Of a stretch of 64,000 nucleotides of DNA, positions 8,986-61,229 are shown piece by piece. A program made the position numbers and the translations under genes. Position 1 is the first letter of the stretch, and each line of letters opens with the position of its first letter. The notes beneath the pieces are model-generated. The model saw nothing but the letters and a program-made list of their open reading frames with translations, was not told the DNA's origin and made no database searches. Source of the DNA: Octopus vulgaris (lineage: Eukaryota); contig OX597818.1 in the NCBI GenBank assembly GCA_951406725.2, positions 8,866,001 through 8,930,000 of the forward strand. Reading direction: 5' to 3'.

Positions 8986-9040
8986 AATATTAAAATTACT
9001 AAGTCTCTCTAAAAGAGATTACGGCAGCGTTACTGGAAAT

Positions 9041-9276: not shown

Positions 9277-9277
9277 G

Positions 9278-9348
<71 letters not shown>

Positions 9349-9389
9349 GCATATATATATATATGTATAAATATATATTTATATACTCT

Positions 9390-9614: not shown

Positions 9615-9668
<54 letters not shown>

Positions 9669-9826: not shown

Positions 9827-10118
9827 ATATTTATATATATATATATATACAAATATAGATATATAGATGCATATATATATATATACCTGTATATATATAT
9901 ACAGAGAGAGATAGTGTGCGTACGTGCATGTGTATGTGTGTGTGTGTATGAAAGAGAGAGGCGACGAAAAATTCCTGGCTTTGAGTACAAGAAAATATAG
10001 ACTCACGCACACATTGCAGCATTCCTTCTGGGAGTTGCACTGGAATTCTTTACATCGTTCTCCAGCCACAAGGGAGCAGTGCAGAATTATGCCCAAAAGA
10101 TTGCCGAGATGAATAATG

Positions 10119-10150
<32 letters not shown>

Positions 10151-10154
10151 CGTA

Positions 10155-10312
10155 CGAGTGATACTGAAAAGTTTAAGGTTACCATGAAAGACTTGGTTAA
10201 AAGCCCAACATTCCGAATTCTTTTACAGAGCATATAAGAACAGAAGGAGTGCTGCAATATGTAAATTTGCATTTTCCTGTACAAAAAGCCAAGAACTTTT
10301 CACCAACTCTCG
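10155..10312. mobile_element. Tc1/mariner-type MITE
   Basis: TA|CGAGTGATACTGAAAAGTT ... AACTTTTCACCAACTCTCG|TA: imperfect TIRs with a TA target duplication. Confidence 0.7.
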
Positions 10313-10337
10313 TATATATACGTATATATACCTACTA

Positions 10338-10729
10338 AAGTTCGAAAATAGATTAAGGTTGTTCATCTTTTTTTTTTCAGTCTGCGGAGAAATTGCTAAA
10401 ATTTTCCCTGTTTATAATTATACCATTTGTTACATATTTCTTATATCATACCTTGATACTGTATGGACAAAGATCCCCGTTGACAGGCCGCTGGTGTTTA
10501 TAGAGTATTAATTTCGGTATGGCTATTAGGGACTCTTTCATAGAGTAACTGCTGCTTTTGCTGAATGTATAAAAGATTTGGCTGCTTGTTTCTCCGGAGA
10601 CTGTCAAAATGATGTAGACGCCTCTGATGAGAACTCAATAAGGTTCGAAAATCGATTAAGGCTGTTCAAAATTTTTTCAGTCTGCGGAGAAATGACTAAA
10701 GATTGCCTTGTTTATAATTATACCATGTG

Positions 10730-10735
<6 letters not shown>
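10338..10735 (+). repeat. ~303-bp unit, 1.3 copies (pLTR/retrozyme-like)
   Basis: TTCGAAAAT.GATTAAGG.TGTTCA...TTTTTTCAGTCTGCGGAGAAAT...TGTTTATAATTATACCAT at 10341 and 10644; an older copy lies at ~19500-19670. Confidence 0.8.
10620..10662 (+). ncRNA. Minimal type I hammerhead ribozyme
   Basis: GCCT-CTGATGA-GAAC(TCAATAAG)GTTC-GAAA-ATCGAT-TA/AGGC. Complete core, 4-bp stems I and II, palindromic stem III, predicted cleavage after 10658. Confidence 0.85.
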
Positions 10736-13078: not shown

Positions 13079-13140
13079 TAATAACAATAATAATAATTAT
13101 AATAATGATAATAATAATAATAATAATAATGATAATAATA

Positions 13141-14552
13141 ATACTTAGGAATCCATGAACTAGATAAGACACAATACACAAATGAAAGAGAAAGTAGAAA
13201 AAGAATATTATAGACGACTTGGATCAATACTGAAAACAGAGCCCAATGCTAAAAACAAGATAATATGTATCAACACTTTAGCCGTCCCAGTTATAAGTTA
13301 CAGCTACAATATCCTTATGAACTGACCAAAATAGATAGTAAAACAAGAAAAATAATGACAGGATCTAGGATGCATAACACAAAATCTGACATAGAAAGGC
13401 TATATATACAAGGTATAGAAGGTGGTAGAGGCCTTATACGGCTGGAAAACTAATACAAAATAACCACCATAGGACTGCAAAAATATCTACTTCAGAAGGA
13501 AGGAAAACTGATACAAATAGCGGCAAAACACGAGCAAAACAAAAAACTGTTCTCAGTATTTAAGGAAGCTGACAAATACAAACAAGAAATCATACCACCT
13601 AACAAATATGAAGAAGAAGATGATTAAGAAACAACAAAAGCTATAAAATAAATAAAATCCAAACTAAAAATAGAACAGCAACGAACCATGATAAAACGAT
13701 GGCAAGAAAAGCCTCTTCATGGCAAATACTGGACTAAACTAAATGCAAAAGAAATAGACAAAGAAAAATCCCAGCAAAGGTTTAGAAGCTCAGGACTCAA
13801 AGCAGAGACAGAAGGATTTTTAATTGCAGGACAAGACCAAAGCCTCCCTACCGGAAATTACCAAAAACATGTAATGAAAAGAAACATAACAAGTAATTGC
13901 AGAATATGTGGAGATGGACAAGAAACAATAAATCATATTATCTCTGGCTGCCCAGTCCTGGCTAAGAAGGAATATATTCACAGTCATGACAGAGTTGGGA
14001 CCTATATACACTGGAAGCTATGCCAACATTATGAAATAACAACAGAAAAAAGATGGTATAGGCACACAGCAGAAAAGGTCACAGAAAACGAGAAAGCAAC
14101 CATGCTCTGGGATATGCCAATACACACAGATAGAGAAATTAAGGCCAACAGACCAGATATAGTTGTCAGAGATCATGAAGAAAAAAATGCTTTCTAATTG
14201 ATGTATCAATACCAGCAGATGACAACGTGTCTCTAAAAGAAAAGGAGAAACTTTCAAAATACTGGAAATAGAGGTAACCAGAATGTGGAATCTAAAAACG
14301 GAAACAATTCCTATCATAATAGGTGCATTAGGCATGCTAAAAAATATTCAGACAAATACATAACAAAAACACCAGCACTTACAGATACATATAACATACA
14401 GAAAAATGCACTACTAGGCACTGCACACATCCTATGCAGAACACTTTCCATACAGTAACCATTAGAGCATCACAACAAATCACAGCACATACCCAGGGCA
14501 CACAGAGCTGCGCTCGGTAGTGAAGTGAAAGCACGCTATAAAAAATATACTA

Positions 14553-14558
<6 letters not shown>
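13141..14558 (+). mobile_element. 5'-truncated R4/Dong-clade LINE (RT C-terminus, CCHC knuckle, REL endonuclease), pseudogenised
   Basis: GGRGL, CRICG..ETINHIISGC, HSHD and RPDIV motifs; close copy of 31965-33415; (TAA)n on both sides. Confidence 0.9.
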
Positions 14559-14626
<68 letters not shown>

Positions 14627-17014: not shown

Positions 17015-17078
<64 letters not shown>

Positions 17079-17082
17079 AATA

Positions 17083-17227
17083 CTTTATTTAAAGCAGCAG
17101 AAATTTCAACAAAATCTGTTACTCTGAGTTTCTCGTCGCCGTTCATCAGACAAAGACTGTCTGATGAACGACAACGAGAAACTCAGAGTAACAGATTTTG
17201 TTGAATGTTCTGCTGCTTTAAATAAAG
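17083..17227. ncRNA. 70-bp-arm palindrome carrying a minimal hammerhead-like motif on each arm
   Basis: Plus strand 17157-17195: CTGT-CTGATGA-ACGACAACGA-GAAA-CTCAGAG-TA/ACAG. Inverted copy at 17115-17152 has loop A-CG-GCGA-CG-A. Stem II is very weak. Confidence 0.7.
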
Positions 17228-17297
17228 CATATTACTCTACCACTGGTATTTGAGTACTCTTTTTCTCCAGCTTGTTTCATATTTATGTGTTTACTCC

Positions 17298-17390
<93 letters not shown>

Positions 17391-17919: not shown

Positions 17920-19749
17920 TACATGTGTATACGTCTGTATCAATGAAGCATGTGTGTGTCTTGATACGTGTATATATAAGTACGCATCTTTATATGTGTG
18001 TATTTTACAACTTAAATTAGTTTCGGCAATTCCTTTGGCGCCTTTGGGAAAATTGGTAAATGTTTGGAAATCTTGATTCCCCAAAGAGTAAACTAAATAT
18101 TATATTAATCCCAGTCAAATAAATACCAAATATATAGAAATATACAAATATAAATATCATACACTAGATGAGTTCGTCTTCCTCTTTGATTTCTTGTCTC
18201 GTGATTTTTTTCCTCCTCTCCAAATCAATAACAAAACAAATAAAAAATAAAACTAAAAATGGATTTTAGAATCCTCCTGCCATCAAACAGTACGCTGCAA
18301 GTAAAACATTCTTCTTCTTGTCGAGAAATAGTAATGGAATTTTTTTATTTACTCTCTCATAACTTCTTAATTTTTTATCTCTTTACATCTATTTAAATTT
18401 TCATTTTTCTGTATGAATTCCTCTTCCTCTTCCTTTTCATTTTATTATTAGAGTACGGTTATTATCATCATCATCATGCACGTCATCATCATGATTTTAA
18501 ATTGGAAATGCATATACGCATATGATTACGATTTGCAATAAAATATTTTCTCCCTCAACTCACATTCGTACAGTTTAACTTACTTAATTATTACAGTTTT
18601 ACCTTTCATAGAAATTTTTTCATGCAGTTACCATCTAGTTCTTCGAAATCGTGCAATTAGCTATATGCTGAAACACAAAAATTTGTTAAATTATAAAGCT
18701 GCTGAGATACTGAATTGTAATTCTGAAATTCAATTTTGGATATGTAAATATATTAAAGAATATCTTGCTGTAGAAGATATTTACTTCCAATGGCTACAAA
18801 GAGAAATGACAACTGAAATATATTCCACAGAAAGCTTACTGAAAATTGATTAAATAGCAATGTGAGTGAACGAAGGAACTGTTTATGTTATGGATCTATA
18901 TACTAAAGATGTGAACACACCTCTTCCAAAAATATATGTAAACATTGATTAATATAATAAATGATAACCTGTTTTAATACATATAAGTATGTTCGCAACT
19001 TGAAAACCTCCGACGAGAGGTCTGTTAACCTATCAGGCTATTGTAGAGATTGTCTGGTAAAAACTGTGCTGCAGTTCTTTGTTAGTATAAGGTGGTGGCA
19101 TCAGATCGACGATCGGAGGGTTTCAAGTTGTGGCTGGACTTATATTTATTGAAACGCGGTGTATTTTGGATTATGTTATAATTGTTATTTCTGGTATTTC
19201 ACGCTAAAATATGTCTAAAATGCATTTCAGCTACTTTTGTTTCAGCATATTTGAAGCGTAAAGTTAGAACATTTTTACTTGTTAGACGTAAAGACACATT
19301 TCTGCCTAATATACATACCATATGCTTGAAATTACAGATAGGCTTCTAAGTGAAGATTTAATAAAAAACATATCGGACGTGATATCTTCTCATATGTACA
19401 AGGAATATATTATCTATATAAATATTCCCTTCTGAATATCTTAATGTTGATATAGAGTGTTAAACACTTTCGGTATGCAAATTAGGGACTCCTGCATTTC
19501 TTAACTATATAAACAGTTTGACTGCTTATAATCTGGAGATTGTCAGAATGGTGTAGACGCCTCAGATGAAAACACAATAAAAATCAACAATCGATGAAGT
19601 GTGTTCATCATTTTTTTCAGTCTGCGGAAAAATAGCTAAAATTTGCCATGTTTATAATTATACCATATATTATAGATATACATGGGTTATTTATTTTAAT
19701 GTTTTTTTTAATTTATTATTTGGGTTGCTTAAAATATTTTGCTAAAATT

Positions 19750-20839
19750 TCTCGACAGATCTATCGGACTTTAAAAGGGGTCACATTGTTGCTGCTCGTA
19801 TGGCAGGCACTAGCGTTACGAAAACAGCCGAAATGCTTGCTGCATCAAGAGGTACTGTCTCGAAAGTTATGACAGCTTTTGAGAAAGAGAGAAAAACCTC
19901 CCCATCGAAACAAATCTCCGGAAGAAAATCAAAACTTTCTGATAGGGACCGTCGGACTATTACGCGAAATGTTAGAAACGATAACAAAAGTACAGCTCCC
20001 AAAATTACTACAGAGCTTAATGAGCATCGCGAGAAGCCAGTTTCCACAAAAACTGTTCGCCGGGAGCTGCACAAATCCGGATTTCACGGAAGGGCTGCAA
20101 TCAGAAAACCACTTCTTTCAAAAACAAATGTAGCAAAGCGTTTAGAGCGGAGGAAAAACCTATATAATTGGTCCCTAGAGTGTGGAAGAATGTTATTTTC
20201 TCGGACGAGTCATCCTTTGCCTTATTTCCGACCACAGACCGAGTCTACGTGTGGAGACAGCCAAAAGGAGCATCTGACCCAGACTGCCTTCTTCGAATTG
20301 TTAAACATAGAGAAGGATCTGTGATGATCTGGGGGTGGGACTATATCTTGGAAATCCGCCGGCTCAATGGTTTCCCTTTCTGGAAGAATTAATGTCAAGA
20401 CTATTCAAGCATTTTATCTGATCAAATTCATAGTATCGTTGCGGAACTGCTTCCGGGGGATAATGCAATCTTTCAGGATGATAATGCACCAATTCACACT
20501 GCTGAAGTTGTTACTGAATGGCACAAGGAACATTCTAGTGAAGTTGAACATCTTATCTGGCCAACATAGTCCCCAAATCTCGATATTATTGAACATTTAT
20601 GGCGTATTTTAGAAAGACAAGTGAGGAATCGATATCCTCCGCCATCATCACTACAAGAAGTGGAGACTGTTTTAGCTGAAGAATCGACAAGAATTCCTCT
20701 GGAAACAATTCGAAATTTGTACGAATACATACCTCGTAGACTTCAAGCTGTAATTACTGCCAGAGGCGATCCTACTCGATGTAATAAGATAAATTTGTCT
20801 GAAATATTAAGATGTTTTCATTACTTTGTCCAACCCCTG
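19750..20839 (+). mobile_element. Tc1-family DNA transposon, frameshifted transposase
   Basis: HTH region (SGRKSKLSDRDRR, VSTKTVRRELH), WKNVIFSDES, FQDDNAP.H, WP..SP.L.IIEHLW (DD34E-like). Right end ...TTTGTCCAACCCCTG|TA; no left TIR found. Confidence 0.9.
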
Positions 20840-22419: not shown

Positions 22420-23910
22420 GGTTATTGCTCTTTCTCAGCACAGAGTGGCTGCTCGGCTAGATAGCGCTGCTGAACTCCCGTTCGAAAGTATATAATTTTC
22501 AAAGTGACAAGCAATCACTCATCTAATAAATATAAACATTATTATTTCTGAACCTCAGAAAGAGAGATATTCAGTAACAGAATCTTAAAGTAAAGACTAT
22601 TTGCCAACATAATGAGACAGTCATGGGTACGACGAATGTTACTGTTATTTAGCCCCAATAAACGTCGTTTCCTGCTGGCTGTTGATAATATGTTTCTTTA
22701 TATTTTCAAACAGGGGAACTCAGCATCCAAATCCAGCAAAAAAGCAACATCTGTGAATCGATTTCTGAGTTATTGCCTTTCTCAGCACAAAGTACTTGCT
22801 CGGCTAGACGGCGCTGCTGAACACCCATTCTAAAATATATAATCTTGAAATTGAATGACAGGCACTGATCTAATAAATGGAAACATTATTATTTCTAAAT
22901 TTCTCAAAGAGAGATATTCAGTAATAGTACATTACAGTAAAGACTATTTCCCAACACGTGTAGCAGTGCTGAATGCGACGAATGTTACTATTGTTTAGTC
23001 CCATGAAATGTCGTTTTCCGCTGGCTATGAGACACAATATCTGTATATTTTCGAATTAGGGAGCTCAGCACCACCATCCAGCTCAAAGCAATATCTATGG
23101 ACCCGTTTCTGGGTTATTGTGCTTTCTCAGCACAGAATAGCTGCTCGGCTACAGTTTCACATATATTGCTTGTGATGGGTAGGGGTGCTGAGCTCCCCTC
23201 TTCGAAAATATAAGGACACAGATATTGTGTCGTATAGTCAGCCAGAAACGACGTTTGCTGTGGCTAAACGACAGTAACATTCATCACATCTTGGACTGCC
23301 ACATTATGCTGGCAAATGGTCTTTACTTCAAAGTACAGTTACTGTACTCTTTCAGGGATCTAGAAATAATAATGTTTTTATTCATTAGATCAATGAAGGC
23401 GTGTGACTTTGAAAGTCATACATGTTCGAACAGGAGTTCAGCAGCGCCGTCTAGCAAAGCAGCTACTCTGTGGTGAGAAAGAGCAATAACACAAAAACCA
23501 GTCCAGAGATGTTGCGTTGTGGTGGATGGAGGTGCTGAGCGACCCTGTCCGAATATAGAATTACATAGATATTATGTAGTATAGCCAGCTTGAAGTGACG
23601 TTTCCCGGGACTAATAAATAGTAACGTTCATCCCACCCAGGACTGCCACGTTATGCTGGCAAATATTTTTACCTAAAGTACTGTTAATGAATATCTCTCT
23701 TTGAAAGATTTAGAAATAATAAGGCTTCCATTCATTAGATAGGTAACTGTGTGTGACTTTGAAAACCATTCAATTTCGAAAGGGAGTATGGCACCATCTA
23801 ACCGAGCAGCGACTCTGTGCGGAGAAAGGACAATAACCCACAAACCGGTCCACAGATGTTGCTTTGTGTTTGATGTTCGTGCTGAGCACGCCAGGCCGAA
23901 AATATAAGGG
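22420..23910. repeat. Diverged ~350-bp tandem repeat, about 2 units in each orientation
   Basis: GTTATTG..TTTCTCAGCACA....GCTCGGCTA at ~22421, 22769 and 23113; reverse-complement units from ~23183 to 23910. Confidence 0.85.
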
Positions 23911-24000: not shown

Positions 24001-25701
24001 TTATTTATCATGAAACTTATTATATAGGTAAAGTAACCTATGTCTGCATTTAATTTTGCGCTCTTCACCTGTATTAAGTAAATTATCATACTTATAAAAT
24101 AAAATTTCCTTAAACTCATTAGAGCATAAATAACAAAAATTCGCTCCTATAGTATATGATTTGGTTTTACAAATTATTTCCCAAGATAAACTATAATTAA
24201 TATTTTGTGATTTAAGTCTCCAAATGTACTTACTAAGTCCAGTGGAGTTGATTAAGTTTTTATTTTTAAAAGAATTCAGATGTGCGATTCTTAATTTTAT
24301 TTTAGAGGAAGTAGACCCTATATAAATCGCTTTTGGGTAATTATTATCCTTAAAGTTATTATCATGTAATGTAACTATACATTTATACACTACATCGTTA
24401 ATATCGCATTTATTATTTAATTTACATTTAGATTTATCTCTACAAGTACAATTAATATATGTCTTATCTTTATTATTAGTATTATTAAATAATTTATTCT
24501 TATAAAAATTATTCAGTTTAAATTTATTAAATGAAGAAACAATGTTACCTACATTATTAGTGGTGGAATAACCTACTCCAAATTTATTACTAGAGAAAAT
24601 GTTTTTATATTTACGATTATCTCTAATAAATAGTTCGATAATATCTAAAATCTCTTTAATAATATTCGTTTTTACTTGATCACCATAAGGAACTATTAAC
24701 CAAATTTTATTCTTATTTACCTTATTATTATAACTGTCATTATTATTATTATTGTATTCATAATTCTTTATAATATTAAAATTATTATCAGAATTATATC
24801 TATGTACAGCATTTAATGAATTATTATTATTAATTTTATCAATATTATTATTATTATTATTATTATTATTTTTATTTTTATTATTCTTATTTTTATTTTT
24901 ATTATTTTTATTTTTATAATTTCTAATATTTTTACGACTAATATTAACAAAATTATAATTATTATTAATATAATTATCTCGAAAATTATTAGTTATATCT
25001 TTATCATTAATATTATAAAATTTAATATTCCTATTATAACCTGCCTCTCTAAGGGCCTCATTATAATAAGTAGCATGTTTATTAAAAATCTCTAAATCAT
25101 AAGAGAGTAATGAAATACGTTTACTTATATTATTAATCAACGATTTTTTAATAGAATGTGGGTGATTACTATTAACATTTATATATCTAAGGTTCTCATT
25201 AATTTTATGATATGGTTGTGTTTTACCTGTAATTAGATTAAAATTAACATCTAAATAATTAACATTATAATTCTCCTTATATATAGTAATACTTAAACCA
25301 TATCTTTTAAAGAAACTATATAGTTTTTTCTTATATACTTCTAGATTCCTATTAGTACAATTCTTTGTAATTAGTAGAAGATCATCTCTATATAAACCAC
25401 CCTCTATCTTAAGATTTTCTAATTGGAGTTCAGATAAAAGAAAAATACCTACTAAATCTGTAGCTTGTGCAGAATCTGGTGCTCCCATAGGTATATCAAA
25501 ACAATCCCTAGTATCTTTCCTAGCCCATAATTTATTTTTATATTTAATGAGCGATTTCCTAGCCATTTTAATTACATTAACTTCATCGAATGTCATTCCC
25601 ACTTTATTCATTGCGAAAATAAGGGCCTTATTAAGCACAATTTCATTATGTGTGTGTTTATGTGTGTGTATCATAAATTCAGTCGGAAAACAATCTTGCA
25701 T
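24001..25701 (-). mobile_element. Penelope-like element ORF, 5'-truncated: RT (C-terminal half), Asn-rich linker and GIY-YIG endonuclease; Hydra-clade-like
   Basis: IPMGAPDS, GLYRDDLL, VNYLDVNF, YINVNSNHP, CTCRDKSKC (CxCx5C), VVY...IYIGST...KLR, CYLC...LLN...KCRH. The first ~20 codons are microsatellite-derived. Confidence 0.9.
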
Positions 25702-27821
25702 TCGATAATAGCATTTTTAGTTTTAGTTTTAAGTTATTAATCGTAATGTGGTATAAGTTTTTGTGGACGCATACATTATAAAACTGGAAAATATGCTTTT
25801 AAACACCGATATAAATTGGAAAGTCTAATCTAAAGCAAAGTATTGCAACAGAACTAAAAGACAATGTAGATTTCGTATTAATTGGGTAAAATGGCAATGC
25901 TATTTGTTAAATACTCGATATGGAACTGGCATGCACAAATAAATTGTTTTTCAAATTATATAACATAGTTCTCTTTAAAATTATCCAGCCCATTCATTTT
26001 CCATACAACTAAGATTATCCTATACTGATATTGGCTTATGTATTTTTTCTATTAACTGCTCCTGACAAAAACATTAATCACTTTTCTTATCCACTTCACA
26101 ATTTACTGCTTACCTTCACAAACGAGACAGCTAGTAATTGCATTGTAATAACCTATACTGTCAACATGTTTCTGTACGTGCTATTATTACCTCACAGCAG
26201 TTTATTTCTAGGTCATACCTCAGCTCACTAGACGTATGCACTTACTTACAATTACTGACACATTTCCACATCTTAATATATATTTACATTATACCTGCGT
26301 TACCCAAATGTATTTACTGCTTTCACAGCTTTGTTCCTTCTAATTTTTTCCTGTCTACCCACTTTGTGAAGATATTCTTACATTTATATCCCTATAAATT
26401 CTTAATTGGGTTAATCCGACTTTTTTCCTTACACACGCGTTCTCCGACAGTTATTTCTTCAAACTAAGACTAAGAATAATATCCATTTTAACCTCTAGCA
26501 AGTATGGATATCCCTCTATTGCTCCTATTATACATTTTCAAACAATTTCTTCGCTATTTAATAAATTACTTTCAAATCTTGCACTAACATCCACTATACT
26601 ACAAATATTTTCCTTACTATCAAACATCAGATCACCTTCCACTCTTTACAAATATAATGATGACTCTGACAATAGGAACTTACGTAATTTTTTTAGCTTC
26701 CTTCTAATTGTTGAGCGTTCTAAAATACATTATAATGTTAAGATTTTAAGCCAACCATGGTATACAGAAATATAATATTAATGTATTTATGTTTCTAAAT
26801 CCAAACTTAAATGTTAAATTTATGACTACATAATTAGTAAGCAAGACTTCTTTGATGCGTGTAATATTGCCCACAGGAGTCGTTACATAGAGCTTAATGC
26901 TTCCTGTTCCATTGATTTTGTCTTTTAGTCTATGTTTATAAATATAAATATTGATATTTTAACAACTCCGATGGTGTTCGCTTCTTAGACCTCACGGCTA
27001 GCTCTCTTTGAGTCGGCCTTTGACACGAATATAGCAGATTGAATGTCTAGCGTGAAAACCTAAGCACTAGCTCCATGTGATCTATGATCGCATCAAACTG
27101 TGGACCATGAAGTACAGAGGCTTATGGAATAGTGGATGCTATCGTTCGTACATCTAAACATGTTCATAGGCCTGAAAAATAATCTTATTTTTCTTCAAGC
27201 CTCTTCTCGTTGTAGTTGTGGTTTAATAAATAAATTGACTCTCACCCATCCCACCTATTGTTAGAAACGTACCAACTTTTAATCATCCTGCCTTACTAAG
27301 CGTATCTGTGACTAAATTATTCAATCCAAAATTTCCAAGCATTTCAAAAACAATACCTTGAGATTTGAGTTAGACTTTGCTGCTGTGATTAGACGATGAA
27401 GAATCTGCCTAGGATCTGTCTTCGTTAGTTGCAGTAGTTATATCAAAACTAGTGAGGTTAATTGATCAGAAATTTGTTGATATAAGAAAATATTCTCCGA
27501 AGCATTGATTTTAATTTTGTTTTAATTTTGTATTTCAAGTAGAGTTTCAATGAATCTTTAGACTTCATTTTGTAATTATTTAACTTGGTAAACTATCAAG
27601 CGCCATCTAATTTTAATTTATCTTATATGGAAACTCAGTAAATTAAACTTTCATTTTAATTTCACCCTGTCAGGCTCACCTCGTATATCAATGGCTATGA
27701 TATAATTTGAGTTGGAATCATTTATTAAAGATATACAAAAATTAAATGTCAACAACACAACAACGTGATCATGCTTACCTTATATATCAATACCTATGCA
27801 GCAATTTGAATCGAAATCATT

Positions 27822-30689: not shown

Positions 30690-33415
30690 CTCCGCAAATA
30701 TAACATCACAAAGAAAGATTTGCCTGAAATAAAAGAAAAGCTGAAGCAAGATATCCTTGCCAAAGCACAAAGGATCCGCCGGTACAAGAAACGCCAACGC
30801 TTCTTTGAAGAAAACAAAAAGTTCAACTCTAACCCCAAAAAGTTCTACCAAGAACTGGGAAAAAATAAAATAGAAGTCACTGCAGCACCAACGGCAGAAG
30901 AATTGGAAGAATTCTGGGGAGAAATATGGTCGGCGAACGAACCACCAAAAAAAGAAGTATCAGAATAACAAACTCGGCATCTGAACAACTTTGGACCCCC
31001 ATAACAACTGAAGAGGTCACCCAGGCACTGCAAAGACTAAGCAACTGGAAGGCACCTGGGCATGACTAGATCCCCAAATTCTGGTTGAAATATCTAACAG
31101 GAATGCACAAAAAGCTGGCTGAAAACTTTAACAAAGTACTAGCAGAGCCAGAGACAATGCCTGAATGGCTCACGAAGGGGAAAACCATCTTAATTCCCAA
31201 ATCAAATAAAACAGAAAAACCAGAAAACTACAGACCAATAACCTGCCTCCCTACTATGTTCAAGGCATTTAGTGCAGTGATATCACAAAGGCTGAACAAG
31301 CACCTGGACGAAAACAAACTGTTCCCAGAAGAGCAGAAAGGATGCCGCAAAGGCTCATATGGCTGTAAAGATCAACTAATGATTAATAAAGCCATAACTG
31401 AAGACAGTCACAGAAAGAAGAAAGGCCTCAGTATGGCCTGGATTGACTACAAAAAGGCGTTTGATAGCATCCCCCACACATGGATCCTCGAAACACTAGC
31501 CATTAACAAAGTAGCACCAACAATCATAAAATTCATAGAGCACTCTATGAATAAATGGCAAACAGTCCTACACCTCCAAACAAAAGAGGGACTCATGAAA
31601 ACCAAAGACATCCCCATTACAAGAGGAATATTCCAGGGAGACACGCTCTCTCCACTCCTTTTCTGCTTGGCACTGTCACCTCTATCTGATATGGTAAATA
31701 GAACTGGATGCGGATATAAATGTTACGGCAAAACGATCAGCCACCTTTTATATATGGATGACCTAAAACTATACGCTGCAAATGACAAACAGCTGGAAAC
31801 ACTATTAAAGACAGTTCATGGATTTACCAAAGAAATAGATATGAAATTTGGATTAGAAAAATGCGCCAAAGTAACCCTGAAAAGAGGAAAACTAGTTAAG
31901 AGTAACAACATCACACTAGATAAAACCAATGAAATAAAAGAATGAGACCAAAGCCAAACTTACAAATACTTAGGAATCCATGAACTAGATAAGACACAAC
32001 ACACACAAATGAAAGAGAAAATAAAAAAAAGAATATTATATACGAGTTAGATCAATACTAAACACAGAGCTCAATGCTAAAAACAAGATAATATGTATCA
32101 ACACTTTAGCTGTCCCAGTTATAAGTTACAGCTACAATATCCTTAACTGGACACGAAATGAACTGACCAAAATAGATAGGAAAACAAGAAAAATAATGAC
32201 AGGATCTAGGATGCATCACCCAAAATCTGACATAGAAAGACTATATATACAACGTATAGAAGGTGGTAGAGGCCTTATACAGCTGGAAAACTACTATAAA
32301 ATAACCACCATAGGACTGCAAAAATATCTACTTCAGAAGGAAGGAAAACTGATCCAGATAGCGACAAAACACGAGCAAAACAAAAAACTGTTCTCAGTAT
32401 TTAAGGAAGCTGACAAATACAAACAAGAAATCACACCACCTAATAAACATGAAGAAGAAGAAGAAGATGAAGAAACAACAAAAGCTATAAAACAAATGAA
32501 ATCCAAACTAAAAATAGAACAGCAACGAACCATGATAAAACGATGGCAAGAAAAGCCCCTTCATGGTAAATACTGGACTAAACTAAACGCAAAAGAAATA
32601 GACAAAGAAAAATCCCAGCAATGGTTGAGAAGCTCAGGATTCAAAGCAGAGACAGAAGGATTTTTAATTGCAGCACAAAACCAAAGCCTCCCCACCAGAA
32701 ATTACCAAAAACATGTAATGAAAAGAAACATAACAAGTAACTGCAGAATATGTGGAGATGGACAAGAAACAATAAATCATATTATCTCTAGCTGCCCAGT
32801 CTTGGCTAAGAAGGAATATATTCACAGACATGACAGAGTTGGAACCTACATACATTGGAAGCTATGCCAACATTATGGAATAACAACAGAAAAAAGATGG
32901 TATAGGCACACAGCAGAAAAGGTCACAGAAAACGAGAAAGCAACCATACTCTGGGATATGCCGATACACACAGATAGAGAAATTAAGGCCAACAGACCAG
33001 ATATAGTTGTCAGAGATCATGAAGAAAAAAATGCTTTCTAATTGATGTATCAATACCGACTGATGACAACGTGTCTCTAAAAGAAATGGAGAAACTCTCA
33101 AAATACAAAGACCTGGAAATAGAGGTAACTAGAATGTGGAATCTGAAAACAGAAACAATTCCTATCATAGTAGGTGCATTAGGCATGATAAAAAAATATT
33201 CAGACAAATACATAACAAAAACACCAGGACTTACAAACACATATAACATACAGAAAATTGCACTACTAGGCACTGCACACATCCTACGCAGAACACTTTC
33301 CATACAATAACCATCAGAGCATCACAACAAATCACAGCACATACCCAAGGCACACAGGGCTGTGCTCGGTAGTGAAGTGAAATCACGCTATAAAAATAAA
33401 AATAAAACTACTGAA
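30690..33415 (+). mobile_element. R4/Dong-clade LINE, 5'-truncated (RT, CCHC, REL endonuclease, 3' UTR), a few disabling mutations
   Basis: KAPGHD, NYRPITCL, DYKKAFDS, GIFQGDTLSP, LYMDDLK, CRICG..HIISSC, RHD and RPDIV motifs; embedded in (TAA)n. Confidence 0.93.
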
Positions 33416-36413: not shown

Positions 36414-36468
<55 letters not shown>

Positions 36469-36735
36469 TTAAATAATGAGGGAGATAAATTAATATTTAT
36501 TTTAATATCAATTTAAAACCAGTAATCTAGCATACAAAAAATCTGAGAAGTCAGAGAAAATTCTACTATATGTGTATATTGGCAGGGCGAGACTGCTAGG
36601 TAGTCGGCCGTATGCTAGAAATAGATCATCAACGATCAAACTACAAAGGAAATTCTCTAGAGGAAAAATTCAGCGAACACCAGAACCAAATTTGGCGGGC
36701 AGGACAGATGAAAATTTATATAAAAAACAGAATCA

Positions 36736-36812
36736 AATGCATACCTCGGTTTCGGCCTTTAACAAAAGAATTACTTACATAATTCAAATGTCCGTGGCTT
36801 CATCAGTGCATT
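36736..36812 (-). ncRNA. Type I hammerhead ribozyme (546-bp family)
   Basis: AATGCA-CTGATGA-AGCC...GGCC-GAAA-CCGAGG-TA/TGCATT. Confidence 0.8.
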
Positions 36813-37281
36813 CGTTCAGTGTAAATGCAAACTGAAAAAAACTAACCCCGGCTTTCTGTGCCAAGACAGACACGTGCTTAGTTTTACCGATTACATTAGG
36901 GATAAAATTTCAAATGTCTTGGTTCTGGCGCGCTAAGAAATTCCTGAAGCAAAGGACTGCAGTAAACAATTCACTGCGGTTAGTGCTTACTACTAGAGAA
37001 CATATTTATTTCAATATTTAAATAATGAGGGAGATAAATTAATATTAATTTTAATATCAATTTAAAACCAGTAGTCTAGCATACAAAAATCTGAGAAGTC
37101 AGAGAAAATTCTAATATATGTGTATATTGGCAGGGCGAGACTGCTAGGTAGTCGGCCGTATGCTAGAAATAGATCATCAACGATCAAACTACAAAGGGAA
37201 TTCTCTTGAGGAAAAATTCAGCGAACACCAGAACCAAATTTGGCGGGCAGGACATGAAAATTTATATAAAAAACAGAATTA

Positions 37282-37358
37282 AATGCATACCTCGGTTTCG
37301 GCCTTTAACAAAAGAATTACTTACATAATTCAAATGTCCGTGGCTTCATCAGTGCATT
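37282..37358 (-). ncRNA. Type I hammerhead ribozyme (546-bp family)
   Basis: Same motif, one period downstream. Confidence 0.8.
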
Positions 37359-37718
37359 CGTTCAGTGTAAATGCAGACTGAACAAAACTAGTCTCGCCCT
37401 GCCAATATACACATATATTAGAATTTTCTCTGACTTCTCAGATTTTTTGTATGCTAGACTACTGGTTTTAAATTGATATTAAAATTAATATTAATTTATC
37501 TCCCTCATTATTTAAATATTGAAATAAATACGTTCTCTAATAGTAAGCACTAACCGCAGTGAATTATTTACTGCAGTCCTTCGCTTCAGGAATTTCTTAG
37601 CGCGCCAGAACCAAGACATTTGAAATTTTATCCCTAATGTAATCGGTAAAACTAAGCACGTGTCTGTCTTGGCACAGAAAGCTGGGGTTAGTTTTTCGGT
37701 TTGCATTTACACTGAACG

Positions 37719-37795
37719 AATGCACTGATGAAGCCACGGACATTTGAATTATGTAAGTAATTCTTTTGTTAAAGGCCGAAACCGAGGTATGCACT
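37719..37795 (+). ncRNA. Type I hammerhead ribozyme (546-bp family)
   Basis: CTGATGA at 37725, GAAA at 37778, GTA cleavage triplet at 37787-37789; stem I shortened to TGCA/TGCA. Confidence 0.75.
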
Positions 37796-37874
37796 TAATT
37801 CTGTTTTTTATATAAATTTTCATCTGTCCTGCCCGCCAAATTTGGTTCTGGTGTTCGTTGAATTTTCCTCTAGA

Positions 37875-37939
<65 letters not shown>

Positions 37940-38058
37940 AATCAAGGAACGGCCATAATAGGCCATTCACCCACTAGAAATAACAGCCAAAAGCTTTAAC
38001 CGCAAAATAACATTAATACCGTAAACCAGGAGAAAATTGAAAAACTTTTACCCTGTAA

Positions 38059-38163
38059 TTTCTTAGACGATGCACCGTTTCATCTAGCGTTTAATGGTAA
38101 ACCAACCTGATTAAATTAAATCAAGCCAATCCACCATAGGCCCTTAGACTCATCAGTAAGAAA
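38059..38163 (-). ncRNA. Type I hammerhead ribozyme (484-bp family)
   Basis: Reverse complement of 39034-39138. Confidence 0.9.
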
Positions 38164-39033
38164 TAGCCAAATCGGAACAGATATTTTTCACGAGGCATTC
38201 CTCTTGCTGCCTCGGCAATATCTGACCTAAAATTTTCAAATCGTCGCACTCGCGCCAAATTTATCGGCAGCAAATGAACCACCGATTCTGTTACGGAACT
38301 AACCAGAAAATTCATAATTAATCAATATAGGGTGACAAAAAAATTTTGTAGAATTCTTTTGCCACCAGCGGCCTAGTAGGAAAAAATTAAATAGTCATAA
38401 ACCATTTTTACGTTCAACATCACAATCAAGGAACGGCCATAATAGGCCATTCACCCACTAGAAATAACAGCCAAAAGCTTTAACCGCAAAATAACATTAA
38501 TACCGTAAACCAGGAGAAAATTGAAAAACTTTTACCCTGTAATTTCTTAGACGATGCACCGTTTCATCTAGCGTTTAATGGTAAACCAACCTGATTAAAT
38601 TAAATCAAGCCAATCCACCATAGGCCTAGATGAAACGGTGCATCGTCTAAGAAATTACAGGGTAAAAGTTTTTCAATTTTCTCCTGGTTTACGGTATTAA
38701 TGTTATTTTGCGGTTAAAGCTTTTGGCTGTTATTTCTAGTGGGTGAATGGCCTATTATGGCCGTTCCTTGATTGTGATGTTGAACGTAAAAATGGTTTAT
38801 GACTATTTAATTTTTTCCTACTAGGCCGCTGGTGGCAAAAGAATTCTACAAAATTTTTTTGTCACCCTATATTGATTAATTATGAATTTTCTGGTTAGTT
38901 CCGTAACAGAATCGGTGGTTCATTTGCTGCCGATAAATTTGGCGCGAGTGCGACGATTTGAAAATTTTAGGTCAGATATTGCCGAGGCAGCAAGAGGAAT
39001 GCCTCGTGAAAAATATCTGTTCCGATTTGGCTA

Positions 39034-39138
39034 TTTCTTACTGATGAGTCTAAGGGCCTATGGTGGATTGGCTTGATTTAATTTAATCAGGTTGGTTTAC
39101 CATTAAACGCTAGATGAAACGGTGCATCGTCTAAGAAA
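39034..39138 (+). ncRNA. Type I hammerhead ribozyme (484-bp family)
   Basis: TTTCTTA-CTGATGA-GTCTA-(58 nt)-TAGAT-GAAA-CGGTGCATCG-TC/TAAGAAA. 7-bp stem I, GUC triplet, predicted cleavage after 39131. Confidence 0.92.
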
Positions 39139-39517
39139 TTACAGGGTAAAAGTTTTTCAATTTTCTCCTGGTTTACGGTATTAATGTTATTTTGCGGTTA
39201 AAGCTTTTGGCTGTTATTTCTAGTGGGTGAATGGCCTATTATGGCCGTTCCTTGATTGTGATGTTGAACGTAAAAATGGTTTATGACTATTTAATTTTTT
39301 CCTACTAGGCCGCTGGTGGCAAAAGAATTCTACAAAATTTTTTTGTCACCCTATATTGATTAATTATGAATTTTCTGGTTAGTTCCGTAACAGAATCGGT
39401 GGTTCATTTGCTGCCGATAAATTTGGCGCGAGTGCGACGATTTGAAAATTTTAGGTCAGATATTGCCGAGGCAGCAAGAGGAATGCCTCGTGAAAAATAT
39501 CTGTTCCGATTTGGCTA

Positions 39518-39622
39518 TTTCTTACTGATGAGTCTAAGGGCCTATGGTGGATTGGCTTGATTTAATTTAATCAGGTTGGTTTACCATTAAACGCTAGATG
39601 AAACGGTGCATCGTCTAAGAAA
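39518..39622 (+). ncRNA. Type I hammerhead ribozyme (484-bp family)
   Basis: Identical copy; predicted cleavage after 39615. Confidence 0.92.
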
Positions 39623-40002
39623 TTACAGGGTAAAAGTTTTTCAATTTTCTCCTGGTTTACGGTATTAATGTTATTTTGCGGTTAAAGCTTTTGGCTGTTA
39701 TTTCTAGTGGGTGAATGGCCTATTATGGCCGTTCCTTGATTGTGATGTTGAACGTAAAAATGGTTTATGACTATTTAATTTTTTCCTACTAGGCCGCTGG
39801 TGGCAAAAGAATTCTACAAAATTTTTTTTGTCACCCTATATTGATTAATTATGAATTTTCTGGTTAGTTCCGTAACAGAATCGGTGGTTCATTTGCTGCC
39901 GATAAATTTGGCGCGAGTGCGACGATTTGAAAATTTTAGGTCAGATATTGCCGAGGCAGCAAGAGGAATGCCTCGTGAAAAATATCTGTTCCGATTTGGC
40001 TA

Positions 40003-40107
40003 TTTCTTACTGATGAGTCTAAGGGCCTATGGTGGATTGGCTTGATTTAATTTAATCAGGTTGGTTTACCATTAAACGCTAGATGAAACGGTGCATCGTC
40101 TAAGAAA
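40003..40107 (+). ncRNA. Type I hammerhead ribozyme (484-bp family)
   Basis: Identical copy; predicted cleavage after 40100. Confidence 0.92.
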
Positions 40108-40353
40108 TTACAGGGTAAAAGTTTTTCAATTTTCTCCTGGTTTACGGTATTAATGTTATTTTGCGGTTAAAGCTTTTGGCTGTTATTTCTAGTGGGTGAA
40201 TGGCCTATTATGGCCGTTCCTTGATTGTGATGTTGAACGTAAAAATGGTTTATGACTATTTAATTTTTTCCTACTAGGCCGCTGGTGGCAAAAGAATTCT
40301 ACAAAATTTTTTTTGTCACCCTATATTGATTAATTATATATATATATATATAT

Positions 40354-40408
<55 letters not shown>

Positions 40409-40436
40409 TCATAAACATGCATGCATATATACATAC

Positions 40437-40492
<56 letters not shown>

Positions 40493-40554
40493 ACATACAT
40501 CTATATATATGCTATTATACATACACACACACAATATATATATATATATATATA

Positions 40555-43500
40555 TTCGCTCAGTCGAAGTCGACTCTCGGTTCCTCCATGGATCAGTGTC
40601 CACCAGTTAGTTCTATCTTGGGCCGCTTCTTTCAGACTGGCTATGTCCATTCCGGTATCACTCTTGATGGTGTCAAGCCAGCCGGTTCTTGGTCGGCCTC
40701 TTCCTCTCTTGCCACTGACCATTCCGAGCATGATATCCTCCTTCAGGGATTTTCTCCTCATAATATGACCAAAATATGCCAATCTATGCTTGGTGATCCT
40801 AGCTTCTAGTGACATATTCAGCCTGATCTGCTTAAGAACTTCTCCATTGGTGAGCCTCGCTGTCCATGGAATCCGTAAAAGTCTTCTCCCACACTAAAGC
40901 TCGAATGCATTAATTCTCTTCTGGTCAGCTTTCTTTAGTGTCCATGTCTCGCATCCATATGTTGCTATTGGGAAGACAATTGTATTCACCAAACTTCATT
41001 TGGTAGCGAGTCTGATGTCTCTACTCTTCCAGACCCTGCTCATGTTGATCATTGCCTCTCTACCTAGTACTATCTGCTATCTTATTTCTGGAGTGCAGTC
41101 ACCATCTCGATTTATTTTGGAGCCAAGGAAGATGAAATCATCAACCACTTCGATCTCTTCATTATCGATCTTGATGCTGATGTTTGTTGTGGCTGCTGTT
41201 GACATGATCTTTGTTTCTTAACATTGAGGTACAGCCCAAATTTCTCACTCTCTTTCTTGACTATCAGGACAAGATCCTCCAGATCCTTACCACTCTCCGC
41301 CAGCAGGGTTTTATCATCTGCATAGCGAAGGTTATTAATATTTCTTCCTCCAATGCTGCTATCCTCCAGGCCTGCATTCATCATGACCTTTTCAGCGTAC
41401 ATATTGAAGGCTGCTGGTGACAGGATGCAACCTTGCCGAGTGCTTTTTTCGATCTCAAACCAGTCAGTGTCGCCATATGGTGCCCGTACTGTAGCCTCTT
41501 AATTTGATAGAGTGATCTAATAAGCTGGACAAGGTGTAAAGGTGTTCCCATTTCCTCCAGACATTTCCATAACTTGTCATGATCAATGCTGTCAAAGGCT
41601 TTGGAATAATCGATGAAACACATGTACAGCTTCTTTTGGTATTCTCTTGCCTTTTCCATAATCCACAGTGGGTTGGCGATGTGATCGCGAGTGCCTCTTC
41701 CCTTTCTGAAACTAGCTTGCACCTCTGGCAATTCTCTCTCAATAGTTGTGTTCAGGCGCTTCTGGATGGTTTTAAGGAGAATTTTGCTTACATGGGTGAT
41801 CAGGGTGATGGTACGGTAGTTTGCGCAGTCCTTGGTATCTCTTTTCTTTGGTATTGGGATGAAAACTGACCTCTTCCATTCCCTTGGCCACTTACAGGTT
41901 CTCCATATTCGTTGGCAAAGCGATGTTAGTGTTTTTGTTGGTATTGGCTTGAGTAATTCTAGTGGAATACCATCAGTACCTGGGCCTTTTCGGTTGGCCA
42001 GTTGTTTCATTGCCCATACTACCTCATCCTCCAGGATGTCTGGTTCCAGTTCCAGTTCCAGTGGCTTGTCTTCTGCCTGTTCATCGAGGTTGTTCCCTGC
42101 ATACAACTGTTCAGTGTACTCCTTCCATCTTTTCCTGATCCCTTTTTGGTCATGCAGTTCTTCACCATTTCTCCCTCGGATGGTTGCTTGTCTGGCCATG
42201 AATGCTGTACGGGTCTTCTTTACGTGTTGGTAAAGTTCTCTCATGTTCCCTTTCCTGTTTGCCTCCTCTGCCCTTGCACATTCCTCATTCCAGTATTTCT
42301 CTTTGTCCTTCCTGGCGGCCTGTTGGAACATTGCATTCAGGCGCCGCACTTCATCCCTGCTTCTGGTCATCTTTGCTCTCTTTCTTTCTTCTGCTATTGC
42401 AATAGTCTCTTCCGAAATCCACTTTGCTGATCATATGGGTTTCTTGTACAGTACATGTTTCTCTGCTATTTCAATGACAATTTACTTCACCTTCTCCCAT
42501 ATTTCTTCTGCTTTCTGATTCTCTTCGATGGCGAGCACATCGAAGCGGTTTCTGATCTCAGCGGCATATGATGGACCGATCTTGCTGGTATTAAATTTCT
42601 GGTAAATGGGTGGTCGCTTGACGCTGCAGAGTCTTGATCTTGGCAACCAGAATTTCATGGTCATATGCACAGTCTGCCCCAGGGAACGTCTTCACATCTT
42701 GGACTGAACTCTTCCACCGTTGCTGACATAGGATGTAGTCGATTTGATTGCAGTATTGTCCACTTGGCGACGTCCAGGTATATAACCTTCTTCTTGGTTG
42801 CCGAAACTAAGTATTGGTTAACCGCATGTGTTGTTCTTGACAAAATTGGACCAGTCGATCTCCTGCTTTATTCCGTTCTCCTAATCCAAATTTTCCAACG
42901 ATGACTGCTTCTGCCCTTTCTCCAATTTTGGCATTGAAATCTCCCAGAATATACACAACATCTGCTCGTGGTGTTTCCTCGATTGCGCCCTGAATTTCTG
43001 CATAGAATTGTGCAATCTCATCTTCTTCGGCGTCGGCAGTTGGTGCGTAGATTTGTAGCAATGTGATTTGGCTCATGGTCTGGTAACTTTCAACGCACTT
43101 GGATATTTTCTTGTATAGAACAAATCCCACTCCATGTTGTCTTCTCTTACTATTACCCGAAAAGTACATTGTATGATCACCAGAGTTGAAGAAACCATTG
43201 CCAGTCCAATGAACTTCGCTGACTCCCAGGATATCGATGTTTGACCGATTCATTTCCTTCTTGATTGTGTCCAACTTCTCAATGTTCATCCCCACTTACG
43301 TTCCATATTCCAATTTTTGTGTCTTTTGTGCAGCGCAGAGATCTCAGTTCGCTGGTGGCTACATCAGCAGCCAGGTGTCCAGAAGGATTTGTCCCATCCG
43401 CGTCATCAATACCGCCGCTATTATGATTATCCTTGTGCTCTTCCCCAGTAGCCAATGTGGTATCTCGCAGTCTGGGGGTCCCACTGTTTGGTACCATCAT

Positions 43501-52177: not shown

Positions 52178-52513
52178 TACAATGATAAAAGCACATTCAT
52201 ATCGATAGCGGACGAGAATCGTCTGGCACGCATGGCGGAACAATACCGTCACATGATTTCAACTTACATGCGCTTCATCAGTAGTAGGCACCCGCTCACA
52301 TGCCGGCTATTTGTAATCACAGTGACTATATACTTACTATTCTTTTTTTTTTTGTAATATATTGATGCCGGTGGAATTTGGCTGGCATGAGATAAGCGGG
52401 CGCCAGTTACTGATAAAAACGCATTTACGCTGAAATCCTGTGACCTCGAAGTTTGGTCACTCGTGCCAGACTTCTCTCAATGCTAACTATATTTATGCAC
52501 TTTTATCATTGTA
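52178..52513. mobile_element. Old TA-flanked fold-back MITE
   Basis: TACAATGATAAAAG..CAT...GTCTGGCACG is mirrored by CGTGCCAGAC...ATGCACTTTTATCATTGTA; inner CCCGCT..CATGCC.GC is mirrored by GC.GGCATG..AGCGGG. Confidence 0.7.
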
Positions 52514-57739: not shown

Positions 57740-60182
57740 CACATTTACGTATATATTGCACAAACACATAACACACATGTGCACACACGCACACTCACGT
57801 ATATATGTGTATACATACTACCAATACACAGTAACATTTCATACATAAAACACACTTTTTTAAAAATCATTTCTACTCAGTGAAATTTATTTGATATTTT
57901 TTCATTGATTTTACAAGTTCGTACGCTCTGTATCTACCTTTTTACTGAACGCACGACTAAGTTATCTTTTATTTAGTTTTATTTTTATTCTGTTATGTAT
58001 TTCAATGTCTCACAGAGAAAGAATTCGATAACCTCACAAGTAAAGAGAAACATTAGCGAACACATATACACGTAAGCACACGCCCCCATACACATCATAT
58101 ACGGCTGGCACACAAAAAGCAAGTTCCAAATTGCATGATCTTTGACTCAGGCAAGTTAACTTTCCATTTCTAGGTTGTCATTAAAAATTTAGTTAATTTA
58201 AACATTCAACGAGAAGAGTTGAGTACTTTATTGCAAAAGTCGAAGCTGTAGTTTTGTTAGATGAATCACAAACACGCACAGGAATAGTTAAAACAGAGAG
58301 AGATTGAAAAACAGATAGACTGGAAGAAGATGAATGAAAGAGAGTGAGGAAGAAAGAGATCGAAAAAAGAATTCAAATAATAGAACGGGAGAGAGACAGG
58401 AGGTGTGAAAGAGAAGTACACATCTATGCACATGCGAATAAAAAATTAAAAGAAGACATAATAAACAAGATGTCCTAGAGTAAAATGAAAAATTTAAATA
58501 TTTTCTTTTTTCTCACATTTAAATTTTTGACTTCCTTGTTTATTTATGATTTCTTTGGTAATATAATGGAAAAGCAAGTTCAAAAGGGCAAAGCCAATCA
58601 AAATTATCATTTAATTAGTTACTTTGTTAATGATCTCTGCAGTTAATAGACTCTTAACTATATGAAATTGCGACGAATCGGCCAGACTGCTGCAGTGAAG
58701 AAAGATAGCGGTGGATCAATAATATATAGTGGATTCTTTCACAATACTTCACAGTAACTTTTGGCTTAAAATTTTTGATGTGCTGCAGCGATATATTCAG
58801 TGCTCTTTCACTACTTTTTATGACTTAGAATTTTTATTTTCATTTTCTTTTTCTATCTTTTTTTGGGTGGATTGTGAGCCGTGTTTTAGGGTATAAATTA
58901 TATTGACTCAATTAACTTCATTAGCACTCTATCTTGATGGTTCTCAAAGGGATGATTGTCGAACTAGTTAAAATTTTACATTGGAATGTAAAATTACATA
59001 GCACAATATTGCAAGCATTTGTTTTTTACATTCTACAGGTCCCGCTATGAATAGCGATAATAAAAACAATCATGTCAGTTAAAATTTGAGCATGTACTTC
59101 ATAGTCTAGAAGTAATTGTTAAATTTCTCTCAAATCACTGCCTATCGTTTTGAGAGCTTAAGAGCATATTGATAAAGATAACACTAACTTTCTCAACTGC
59201 AGACCTGCGTTGTCAAGCTTGTTCTATCAATGATCAAGCAACAATTGTATTTACCACCAAAAATTAATTTGTTTAAATAAGTTACTGTTATTGTTTACCC
59301 CCAGATTAATGTTAATAAAAAATAATTATATCCAAAGCCATTACACCCGTGACTATGCTGTGGGACAGACTGTATCCAGAACTGCAGCTCAGTCCAAAAC
59401 ATGAACTGTTTAAAAGCTACTAAGACAAAAGGTGATCTGACCTGATCCCCGTCATCGAAGCACTAGAAATATTGCAGCCTCGGTGAACCCTCAGCTCCGG
59501 CATAATCAGGCCACCACAAATGGGATACCTGAGCAGTGGCTGTCGTCTCTTCCACAGAATATAGATGAGTAGATGCTACAGTCCTGTTAAAGGCGACCTA
59601 GGGCAAGCCACGGTGGGCAGGCGGTAGTATATGACTGAGTGTATGACTAAGAAGATGTATTCATGCTTAACATCTGCCCTACATTTCAGTTACATGCTTT
59701 TCGGCCCATTTTTGAGTGAAGTTGTGCACAATGCTCCTCACCTAGTCTTAGTTCCTCTCCACTTCGAGATATGAGCAAAACAGAGCGATGTAAATGGTCC
59801 GACCTTTCTTCATCCCATGATTTTTTTGAACAGCATGACCCCGCCTCACGAAGTGCCGAGGTGCAGGCTCACTGACTTACCTTGCTTTTATCACAACCTA
59901 CGATAAGTATAAAACAGTACAGAGGAAATGTATTTTTCTAGAGTCCAACATTATGACAGTGACACCGTTTGATATGTCAACATGAGTCTCTCATGTCCTA
60001 TTTTGCACAGGATACCCCTTAGCGTCTCTAGTTTCCATAGTAGTGATTCTTTAGTCAGTACATACAAAACAGGAGCAATCGTGACGGACCAGGTGCGTAA
60101 TACTGAGAGGTTCCGATACGTGACCATTTACCCGAAATGCCGTGTAGATAACGCTTTACATTGCGGCAACCCAACTAAAGGG

Positions 60183-60565
60183 TTTGACCCGGTCATAAAA
60201 ACAAAAAAAAATAGTGTAATAGGTGTAAAGCAAATTCCTGTAAACGAATATGACAACGAAAATGCGCGCTCGCGAAAGAGAGTGGGGGAGAGGCCTCGGA
60301 AAATTCACATCGTGAATTTCCGAAATCGTCTGAGGGTCTAACCCAGGCACAAAAACAAAAACAAAATGGTGTAATATGTGTAAATCAACTTGCTCTAAAC
60401 GAATATGACAAAAAATATACGCTCTAGCGAAAGTGGGGTGGGAGAGAGGACTTTCGAAAATTCACATTTTCACTCCATGGCCTTTAAACTATAGTGTTTG
60501 ATCCGCCCGGAAAAAAAAAAATAGTGTAATTTGGTGTAAAACTACTTGTTCTAAACGATTATCAA
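60183..60565 (+). repeat. ~155-bp diverged tandem repeat (2.5 units)
   Basis: AAAAAT(A/G)GTGTAAT..GTGTAAA...TAAACGA occurs three times; inverted copy at 61050-61217. Confidence 0.8.
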
Positions 60566-60702
60566 GAACATACACACACACACACACACACAAAGAGAAA
60601 TGATTGGTTCAAGGCAAGTGTGCATTGAACTGAATTTAAATAAGCAAGAAAGATATTATCAAAGAAAAGGCCATATCACCATCTTAGTATCTGTTGTTGT
60701 CG

Positions 60703-60751
<49 letters not shown>

Positions 60752-61049
60752 GGAGTTGAATGTGTATGTGTGGTGAAGTTATTAATATCAATACATTAAC
60801 CAACACCATTGAAGTGAAATAATAGTTTCTATACTTTTGGTTTGGCACTGCCGAATTGAGTCAAAAACTATGCAATACAATTCAGCAGAAAAAAAAAAAA
60901 GAAAAATGCGATATCCAGAACGGTAAAGAAATAAGACCTCCCCCAAACAGTAACCCTTGTGTTTAAAATCTCTGTAACAAAAAGGAGAGGTTGTTTGGCT
61001 ATGGACTTCATTGATATTTCCATGTGGTTTAGCCACTATTTACACTTTT

Positions 61050-61217
61050 TCTTCGTGCCCGGGTCAGACGCTTTCGGAAATCACGACGTAAATTTTCCGA
61101 GTCCTCTGCCCCACCCACTTTCGCGAGAGCGCATTTTTTTGTCAAATTCGTTTAGAGGAAGTTGTTTTACACCTACTACACTATTTTTTTGGTTTTGTTT
61201 TTATGACCGGGTCAATC
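61050..61217 (-). repeat. Inverted copy of the 60183-60350 unit
   Basis: TTTTATGACCGGGTCAA is the reverse complement of TTGACCCGGTCATAAAA; the ORF track shows the shared peptide HDVNFP.PLPH.LSR.RIF. Confidence 0.85.
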
Positions 61218-61229
61218 GCATTAGCTTGA

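Follow-up and report, generated by a model that had tools for sequence, protein, structure and literature searches.

A hammerhead-bearing 484-bp repeat occupies positions 37935-40337 of the window (the complete 64,000-nt stretch of DNA analyzed here) as a young head-to-head insertion into (TA)n. The explanation that we hold to be somewhat better than evenly probable is a non-autonomous Penelope-type insertion, in which each nicked target strand primed the reverse transcription of one arm and the two arms were joined over a single base, at a site that was probably not fixed by a ribozyme helix. The architecture (Table 1) is itself already known, and it is read directly from the DNA, as are the hammerhead motif, the identity of the arms, the one-base overlap and the position of one outer end at a recurrent terminus of the family. 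Measured against one monomer, the two arms together show no mismatches and one extra base over 2,404 bases. Measured from the ribozyme cleavage site, the outer end of the inverted arm lies 131 nt downstream; the longer direct arm ends 237 nt downstream, within an AT-rich word, and overshoots the outer end of the inverted arm by 106 nt. The surrounding DNA is repeat-rich and eukaryotic with abundant microsatellites, and no target-site duplication can be read in the (TA)n flanks. The 484-bp element is likely a non-autonomous Penelope-type retroelement, or non-LTR retrozyme: as in retrozymes, three consecutive non-coding units each carry a complete hammerhead, and with no open reading frame of 150 amino acids within 37935-40329 it behaves like a Penelope pseudo-LTR and not like an autonomous Penelope-like element. 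The family is dispersed and high-copy, with 622 to 10,540 contigs per public run in all four runs and many variants. The stretch is contained in 20 of the 24 sequencing runs listed, one of which is recorded as RNA (share 0.07; most RNA labels are guessed).

Table 1. Features of the 484-bp-repeat element and its flanks (window coordinates)
Feature	Position	Strand	Details
Whole 484-bp-repeat element	37935-40337		(TA)n on both sides
(TA)30 flank	37877..37936	.	common to the neighboring 546-bp element
Inverted arm	37935..38626	-	692 nt, or 1.43 repeat units; 100% identity to 39055-39746
Hammerhead on inverted arm, complete	38058..38164	-	descriptor scan
Facing pair of truncated hammerheads across junction	38542..38655	.	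CUGAUGA and stem II 5' strand missing from both
Spacer of innermost palindrome	38572..38625	-	54 nt; reverse complement of the distal hairpin on stem II with its adjoining internal loop
Inversion junction	38626..38626	.	one shared base (monomer G408 in inverted arm, C463 in direct arm)
Direct arm	38626..40337	+	3.5 tandem 484-bp units; 1711/1712 bases match one monomer
Hammerhead 1	39033..39139	+	CUGAUGA at 39041, predicted cut after 39131; descriptor scan, Rfam, fold, family variation
Hammerhead 2, complete	39517..39623	+	descriptor scan, Rfam
Hammerhead 3, complete	40002..40108	+	descriptor scan, Rfam
(TA)n-rich flank	40335..40555	.	

Each 484-bp unit contains a type I hammerhead motif with the core CUGANGA, GAAA and UH and with stems I, II and III in the type I order. 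Stem I has 8 bp, stem II has 5 bp (monomer 401-405/464-468) and stem III, which follows GAAA, is near-palindromic; beyond stem II lie a 7x7 internal loop and then a 19-bp G-U-rich distal hairpin. A descriptor scan of the window recovered the four complete copies and, at 10624, a single motif belonging to another family, compared with one match in 30 shuffles. The Rfam Hammerhead_1 model gives 22.1 bits (E 0.06), under its gathering score of 34, and no Rfam hammerhead match in the window reaches gathering level; the 45-position model has to absorb the 55-nt stem II insert. The hammerhead fold has z = -3.5. The core-region variants listed in the public contigs fall at N7 (39045), at H17 (39131 C>A) and, as 39048 G>A and 39115 T>C, at the first pair of stem II, and none of the variants listed, which are unphased, affects a core base. 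This is the pattern expected of a conserved hammerhead, for which self-cleavage is predicted from the sequence. Variants of stem III (39116-39131) at loose contig ends remain palindromic or nearly so, which would fit dimer-dependent cleavage. The motif at 10624 is a compact type I hammerhead in a repeat family of ~300 bp (10336-10735 and 19451-19672) in which no inversion was seen.

The preliminary description had quoted the letters of the junction correctly, with CCATAGGCCTAGATGAAACGG unique and located at 38618 and the intact antisense word CCATAGGCCCTTAGACTCATCAG at 38134. It had also placed the switch inside stem II, from TAGAC into TAGAT, which the alignment contradicts. Base 38626 is both the last to match in the antisense arm and the first to match in the sense arm, giving a formal microhomology of one base (C38626), and the arm ends correspond to monomer positions 408 and 463, in the 7x7 internal loop between stem II and the distal hairpin and 2 nt out of register with both flanking helices. 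The break is beside stem II, and use of TAGA as microhomology requires a 2-nt slip. Random joins of the 484-bp monomer share at least one base in 44% of cases and have a slipped match of at least 4 nt in 5.2%. We defined a near-register junction as one lying at most 2 nt from a pair of probability at least 0.3, with a null taken over all monomer end pairs. By chance, 1.4% of all end pairs are near-register, or 2.8% and 4.1% when the ends are at most 100 nt and at most 60 nt apart, and at least one such junction among four to six would be seen by chance in 5-22%. The near-register positions match at 15 of 30 at the junction (P 0.03). Since the pairing and register signals are one observation viewed several ways, they are not independent tests.

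The low chance of a near-register end pair (1.4-4.1%) and these matches are the points in the sequence that stand against independent priming of the two arms, and the first of them favors joining guided by the hairpin. An antisense strand ending at 38626 would fold back on itself or anneal to the other cDNA, slipping slightly, and extend into the sense arm. This corrected form of the preliminary idea agrees with a published self-priming model, and we regard it, and with it any help from the hairpin at 38626, as a possibility to be taken seriously with the balance tilted against it. The available text of PMC3846280 (Arkhipova et al.) attributes palindromes at such head-to-head junctions to self-priming on an antisense template, which also speaks against our preferred explanation. 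The arm ends are partly complementary because they are copied from opposite strands of the extended stem II, and the template reads G-C-G at 461-463, so that a 2-nt slip would be easy. Taken as RNA, the antisense end folds back at -6.6 kcal/mol compared with an optimum of -8.1 kcal/mol and pairs all of its last 10 bases by way of two G-U pairs and two single-base bulges, and in RNA-parameter folds of three sizes the last base of the arm pairs most probably with 38571, the partner observed. Against this, the terminal-pair probability as RNA is only 0.004-0.022, a level reached by 56% of the 484 3' ends and no better than the median, and the antisense RNA itself is presumed. Fold-back of the cDNA is unstable (+1.0, +1.1 and +4.4 kcal/mol, with a terminal-pair probability of 0.001 for the +1.1 structure) because the G-U pairs of the sense hairpin turn into C-A mismatches, and as a duplex the two cDNA ends are unexceptional (P 0.23). 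Fold-back alone would also leave the unequal arms and the recurrent outer end unexplained.

The preliminary description had proposed that the ribozyme helix supplied the microhomology or pause site for the template switch. The hammerhead and the inversion are both present, and both arm ends do lie near opposite strands of the extended stem II; the helix as cause fares less well, with one true shared base, a 2-nt offset in register, an unstable cDNA fold-back and none of four other junctions in agreement. A pause would be expected before the helix, yet the cDNA had apparently passed the stem II 3' strand, which argues against a pause site. The near-register position of 38626 is most likely a coincidence.

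For comparison, we assembled five testable junctions from four families, four in the window and one in public contigs. Only one of the five is near helix register, and apart from 38626 the count is zero of four. The 546-bp array (36464-37878) is inverted at 37390 over one shared base, out of register; one of its ends lies 37 nt upstream of CUGAUGA, close to the ~30 nt first reported, and the other, which the preliminary description had omitted, lies 145 nt downstream of the cut. In the 467-bp family (158-1166), four bases are shared and the ends are out of register, one lying 130 nt before the core and the other 24 nt past the cut. The palindrome at 17077-17298 does have its center (17150-17160) directly before CUGAUGA at 17161, as the preliminary description had it, with no jump between helix strands: the center falls in the stem I 5' strand and the core is present on both arms, whereas a helix-guided jump would have landed on the 3' strand. 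Neither this palindrome nor the 546-bp array, which had been offered as further cases, shows helix microhomology. Among the six joints listed when public contigs were compared with one monomer, a single opposite-strand joint was found (39180/39288, run X12), which has no shared bases, lies outside the ribozyme and is out of register. Shared bases at four junctions thus number 1, 1, 4 and 0 nt, and a general role of ribozyme helices in setting breakpoints is not supported. The junction at 38626 is not among the joints listed in the contigs of four public runs, in which rare forms are dropped and this variant is nearly absent. Two inversions were left out of the register count, that of the 347-bp array (22421-23907), which has no recognizable hammerhead and arms of 72-77% identity, and that at 52178-52513, which has no longer copy for placing its ends. 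The proximity of ends to ribozymes carries a recognition bias, as arms were identified partly by their spanning a ribozyme, and the reverse transcription start lies just downstream. We considered and rejected junctions at the cleavage site itself, to which the closest end (467-bp family) is 24 nt away.

Several further observations concern these neighboring repeats. At least five head-to-head hammerhead-like families are present in the 64 kb, with 158-1166, 17077-17298 and 52178-52513 being decayed hammerhead-like elements that are also head-to-head. In all three ribozyme copies of the hammerhead-like 546-bp array the first pair of stem II is an A-C mismatch, and the (TA)30 tract common to the 546-bp and 484-bp elements suggests repeated insertion into one microsatellite. 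The 347-bp array is old and tandem, with its inversion at about 23151-23156, and its units seem to contain an internal inverted repeat. CTAG was noticed post hoc at, or at most 7 nt from, four junctions (38626, 37390, 23151 and 1025), in the junction or in the uninterrupted copy, and occurs 1-4 times per unit. A 155-bp tandem repeat at 60175-61224 has an inverted partial copy about 500 nt away, while 31070-33041, 13140-14624, 41381-43295 and 19746-20324 hold LINE-type reverse transcriptase fragments and a Tc1/mariner transposase fragment (Pfam RVT_1, HTH_Tnp_Tc3_2).

Priming from both target strands would account for the ends, the template and the arm lengths. Under this mechanism, a Penelope reverse transcriptase/GIY-YIG protein supplied in trans would nick both (TA)n strands; synthesis would be primed by one nick at the usual start 131 nt beyond the cut and by the other at an AT-rich internal word; both cDNAs would be copied from a single RNA, circular or tandem, and run across the cleavage site, and their two 3' ends would then be end-joined. 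The outer end on the left is a recurrent terminus of the family: in run X15, 14 contigs have a loose end here and continue into (AT)n. A second recurrent terminus lies about 17 nt further, like a Penelope tail. The features of Penelope-type insertions are accordingly present in the element, namely an inverted 5'-truncated copy, a microsatellite target and two adjacent 3' ends, and in all four well-resolved elements of the window the 3' ends face outward into microsatellites. Reverse transcription in these elements starts 43-275 nt downstream of the cut site, so by geometry alone short arms end near the ribozyme. All units of both arms carry family-rare letters: the C at 39110 leaves at most 29/645,648 of the depth in run X1, about 0 in X15 and X12, and 1,427/1,637,370 in X2. 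Rare letters common to both arms indicate that one template made both, and reading of this template appears to have crossed the cleavage site several times, in keeping with an RNA that was circular or an uncleaved tandem. As the direct arm exceeds the inverted arm and overshoots it, the element is not a plain copy-back of the inverted arm. Both-strand priming with end joining would be the simplest account of these observations.

A candidate source of such a protein type is found at 24001-25716 on the minus strand, where an open frame of 571 codons has reverse transcriptase motifs, an asparagine-rich linker, a cysteine cluster and a GIY-YIG-like end. From motifs read by eye and from Atlas, we label it a putative 5'-truncated Penelope-like element, and it suggests that Penelope-type reverse transcriptase/GIY-YIG proteins exist in the genome. 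A Pfam search with this frame returned nothing, and the self-comparison of the window found no DNA similarity between it and the 484-bp unit. It adjoins the 347-bp inverted array. Asparagine-rich inserts are described for rotifer Penelopes in the available text of PMC3846280.

Three other explanations have less behind them. Penelope-type inversions might be templated by RNA structure, with new strands halting on opposite sides of a helix, in this case the extended hammerhead stem II, and joining through mirror-image complementarity, a proposal that we consider unlikely. If true, genomic junctions would preserve a trace of how the retrozyme RNA intermediate was folded and perhaps of its polarity; no published mapping of such junctions onto ribozyme helices was found in the main texts of a mostly open-access literature. 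A tandem array already in place might instead have been inverted afterwards as DNA, through template switching in replication or through repair of a break. The one-base overlap is compatible with end joining, and identical tandem units would serve as templates, but this explanation is very unlikely: the inverted arm ends on its outer side at a recurrent terminus with (TA)n immediately beyond, flanking DNA is unduplicated and the same polarity is seen in several unrelated families of the window. An artefact of a fold-back read or of assembly, in which two homopolymer errors would convert an in-register join to the observed letters, agrees with the 100% identity of the arms and the absence of the joint from those listed in four public runs (weakly informative, as these runs hardly contain the variant), but we give it scarcely any credence: a fold-back read would also mirror the flank, which is unmirrored, older elements of the same layout have diverged arms (72-98%), and a single indel is found across 2,404 bases of the array.

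The nearest known systems are the non-LTR retrozymes of animals, which the available texts of PMC7229834 (Cervera and de la Pena 2020) and bioRxiv 10.64898/2026.07.22.740005 (Li, Clavereau and Pollet) treat as likely Penelope-derived, with a dependence on Penelope-like elements proposed there. The octopus element resembles these in its low-GC non-coding tandem units, type I hammerhead, short palindromic stem III and very high copy number, and differs in its 484-bp unit, compared with about 300 bp typically, and in its 19-bp stem II extension. A term search of the same texts found no account of inverted arms ('inverted' occurs 0 times in the first and once, in a reference title, in the second). 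With the inverted pseudo-LTRs of Penelope-like elements, as far as the available texts of PMC8557442, PMC3846280 and PMC4209133 describe them, it shares the head-to-head inverted 5'-truncated copy, partial tandems, the (TA)n target, a tail-like pair of 3' ends and a palindromic junction, whereas it lacks an open reading frame and its tail is about 17 nt compared with 30-40; these texts contain no mapping of junctions onto ribozyme helices. Inverted 5'-truncated copies, tails and a (TA)n bias are given as typical of Penelope-like elements in that part of PMC8557442, with their origin left undefined, and PMC4209133 places hammerheads in pseudo-LTRs, reports opposite-strand pairs 100-700 bp apart in Schistosoma and proposes circular templates. 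According to the available text of PMC11167929, the Penelope-like protein of Anolis cleaves and extends both target strands, starts reverse transcription at nt 111-118 of the ORF, about 85-90 nt past the hammerhead cut at 26, and does not need hammerhead cleavage in vitro. In our pattern scans, no matches were found in metagenome and prokaryote contigs; two in viral contigs, without hairpin or stem I, were rejected as chance.

Short high-copy retrozymes with readable junctions make the formation of tandem and inverted Penelope insertions testable by counting: junctions should be scattered and share 0-4 bases under twin priming followed by end joining, and should fall in hairpin register under antisense self-priming. 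The small comparison set leans toward twin priming with end joining, and a single junction is indecisive. In twin priming of LINE-1, two cDNAs are made from opposite target strands, one from the usual start and one from an internal site, and are joined head-to-head over short microhomology. The arrangement proposed here is alike in having head-to-head cDNAs primed at a usual and an internal site. The pieces of a LINE-1 insertion are adjacent, non-overlapping parts of one linear RNA, whereas the arms of the octopus element overlap and extend over several units, which is what copying of a circular or tandem template should give.
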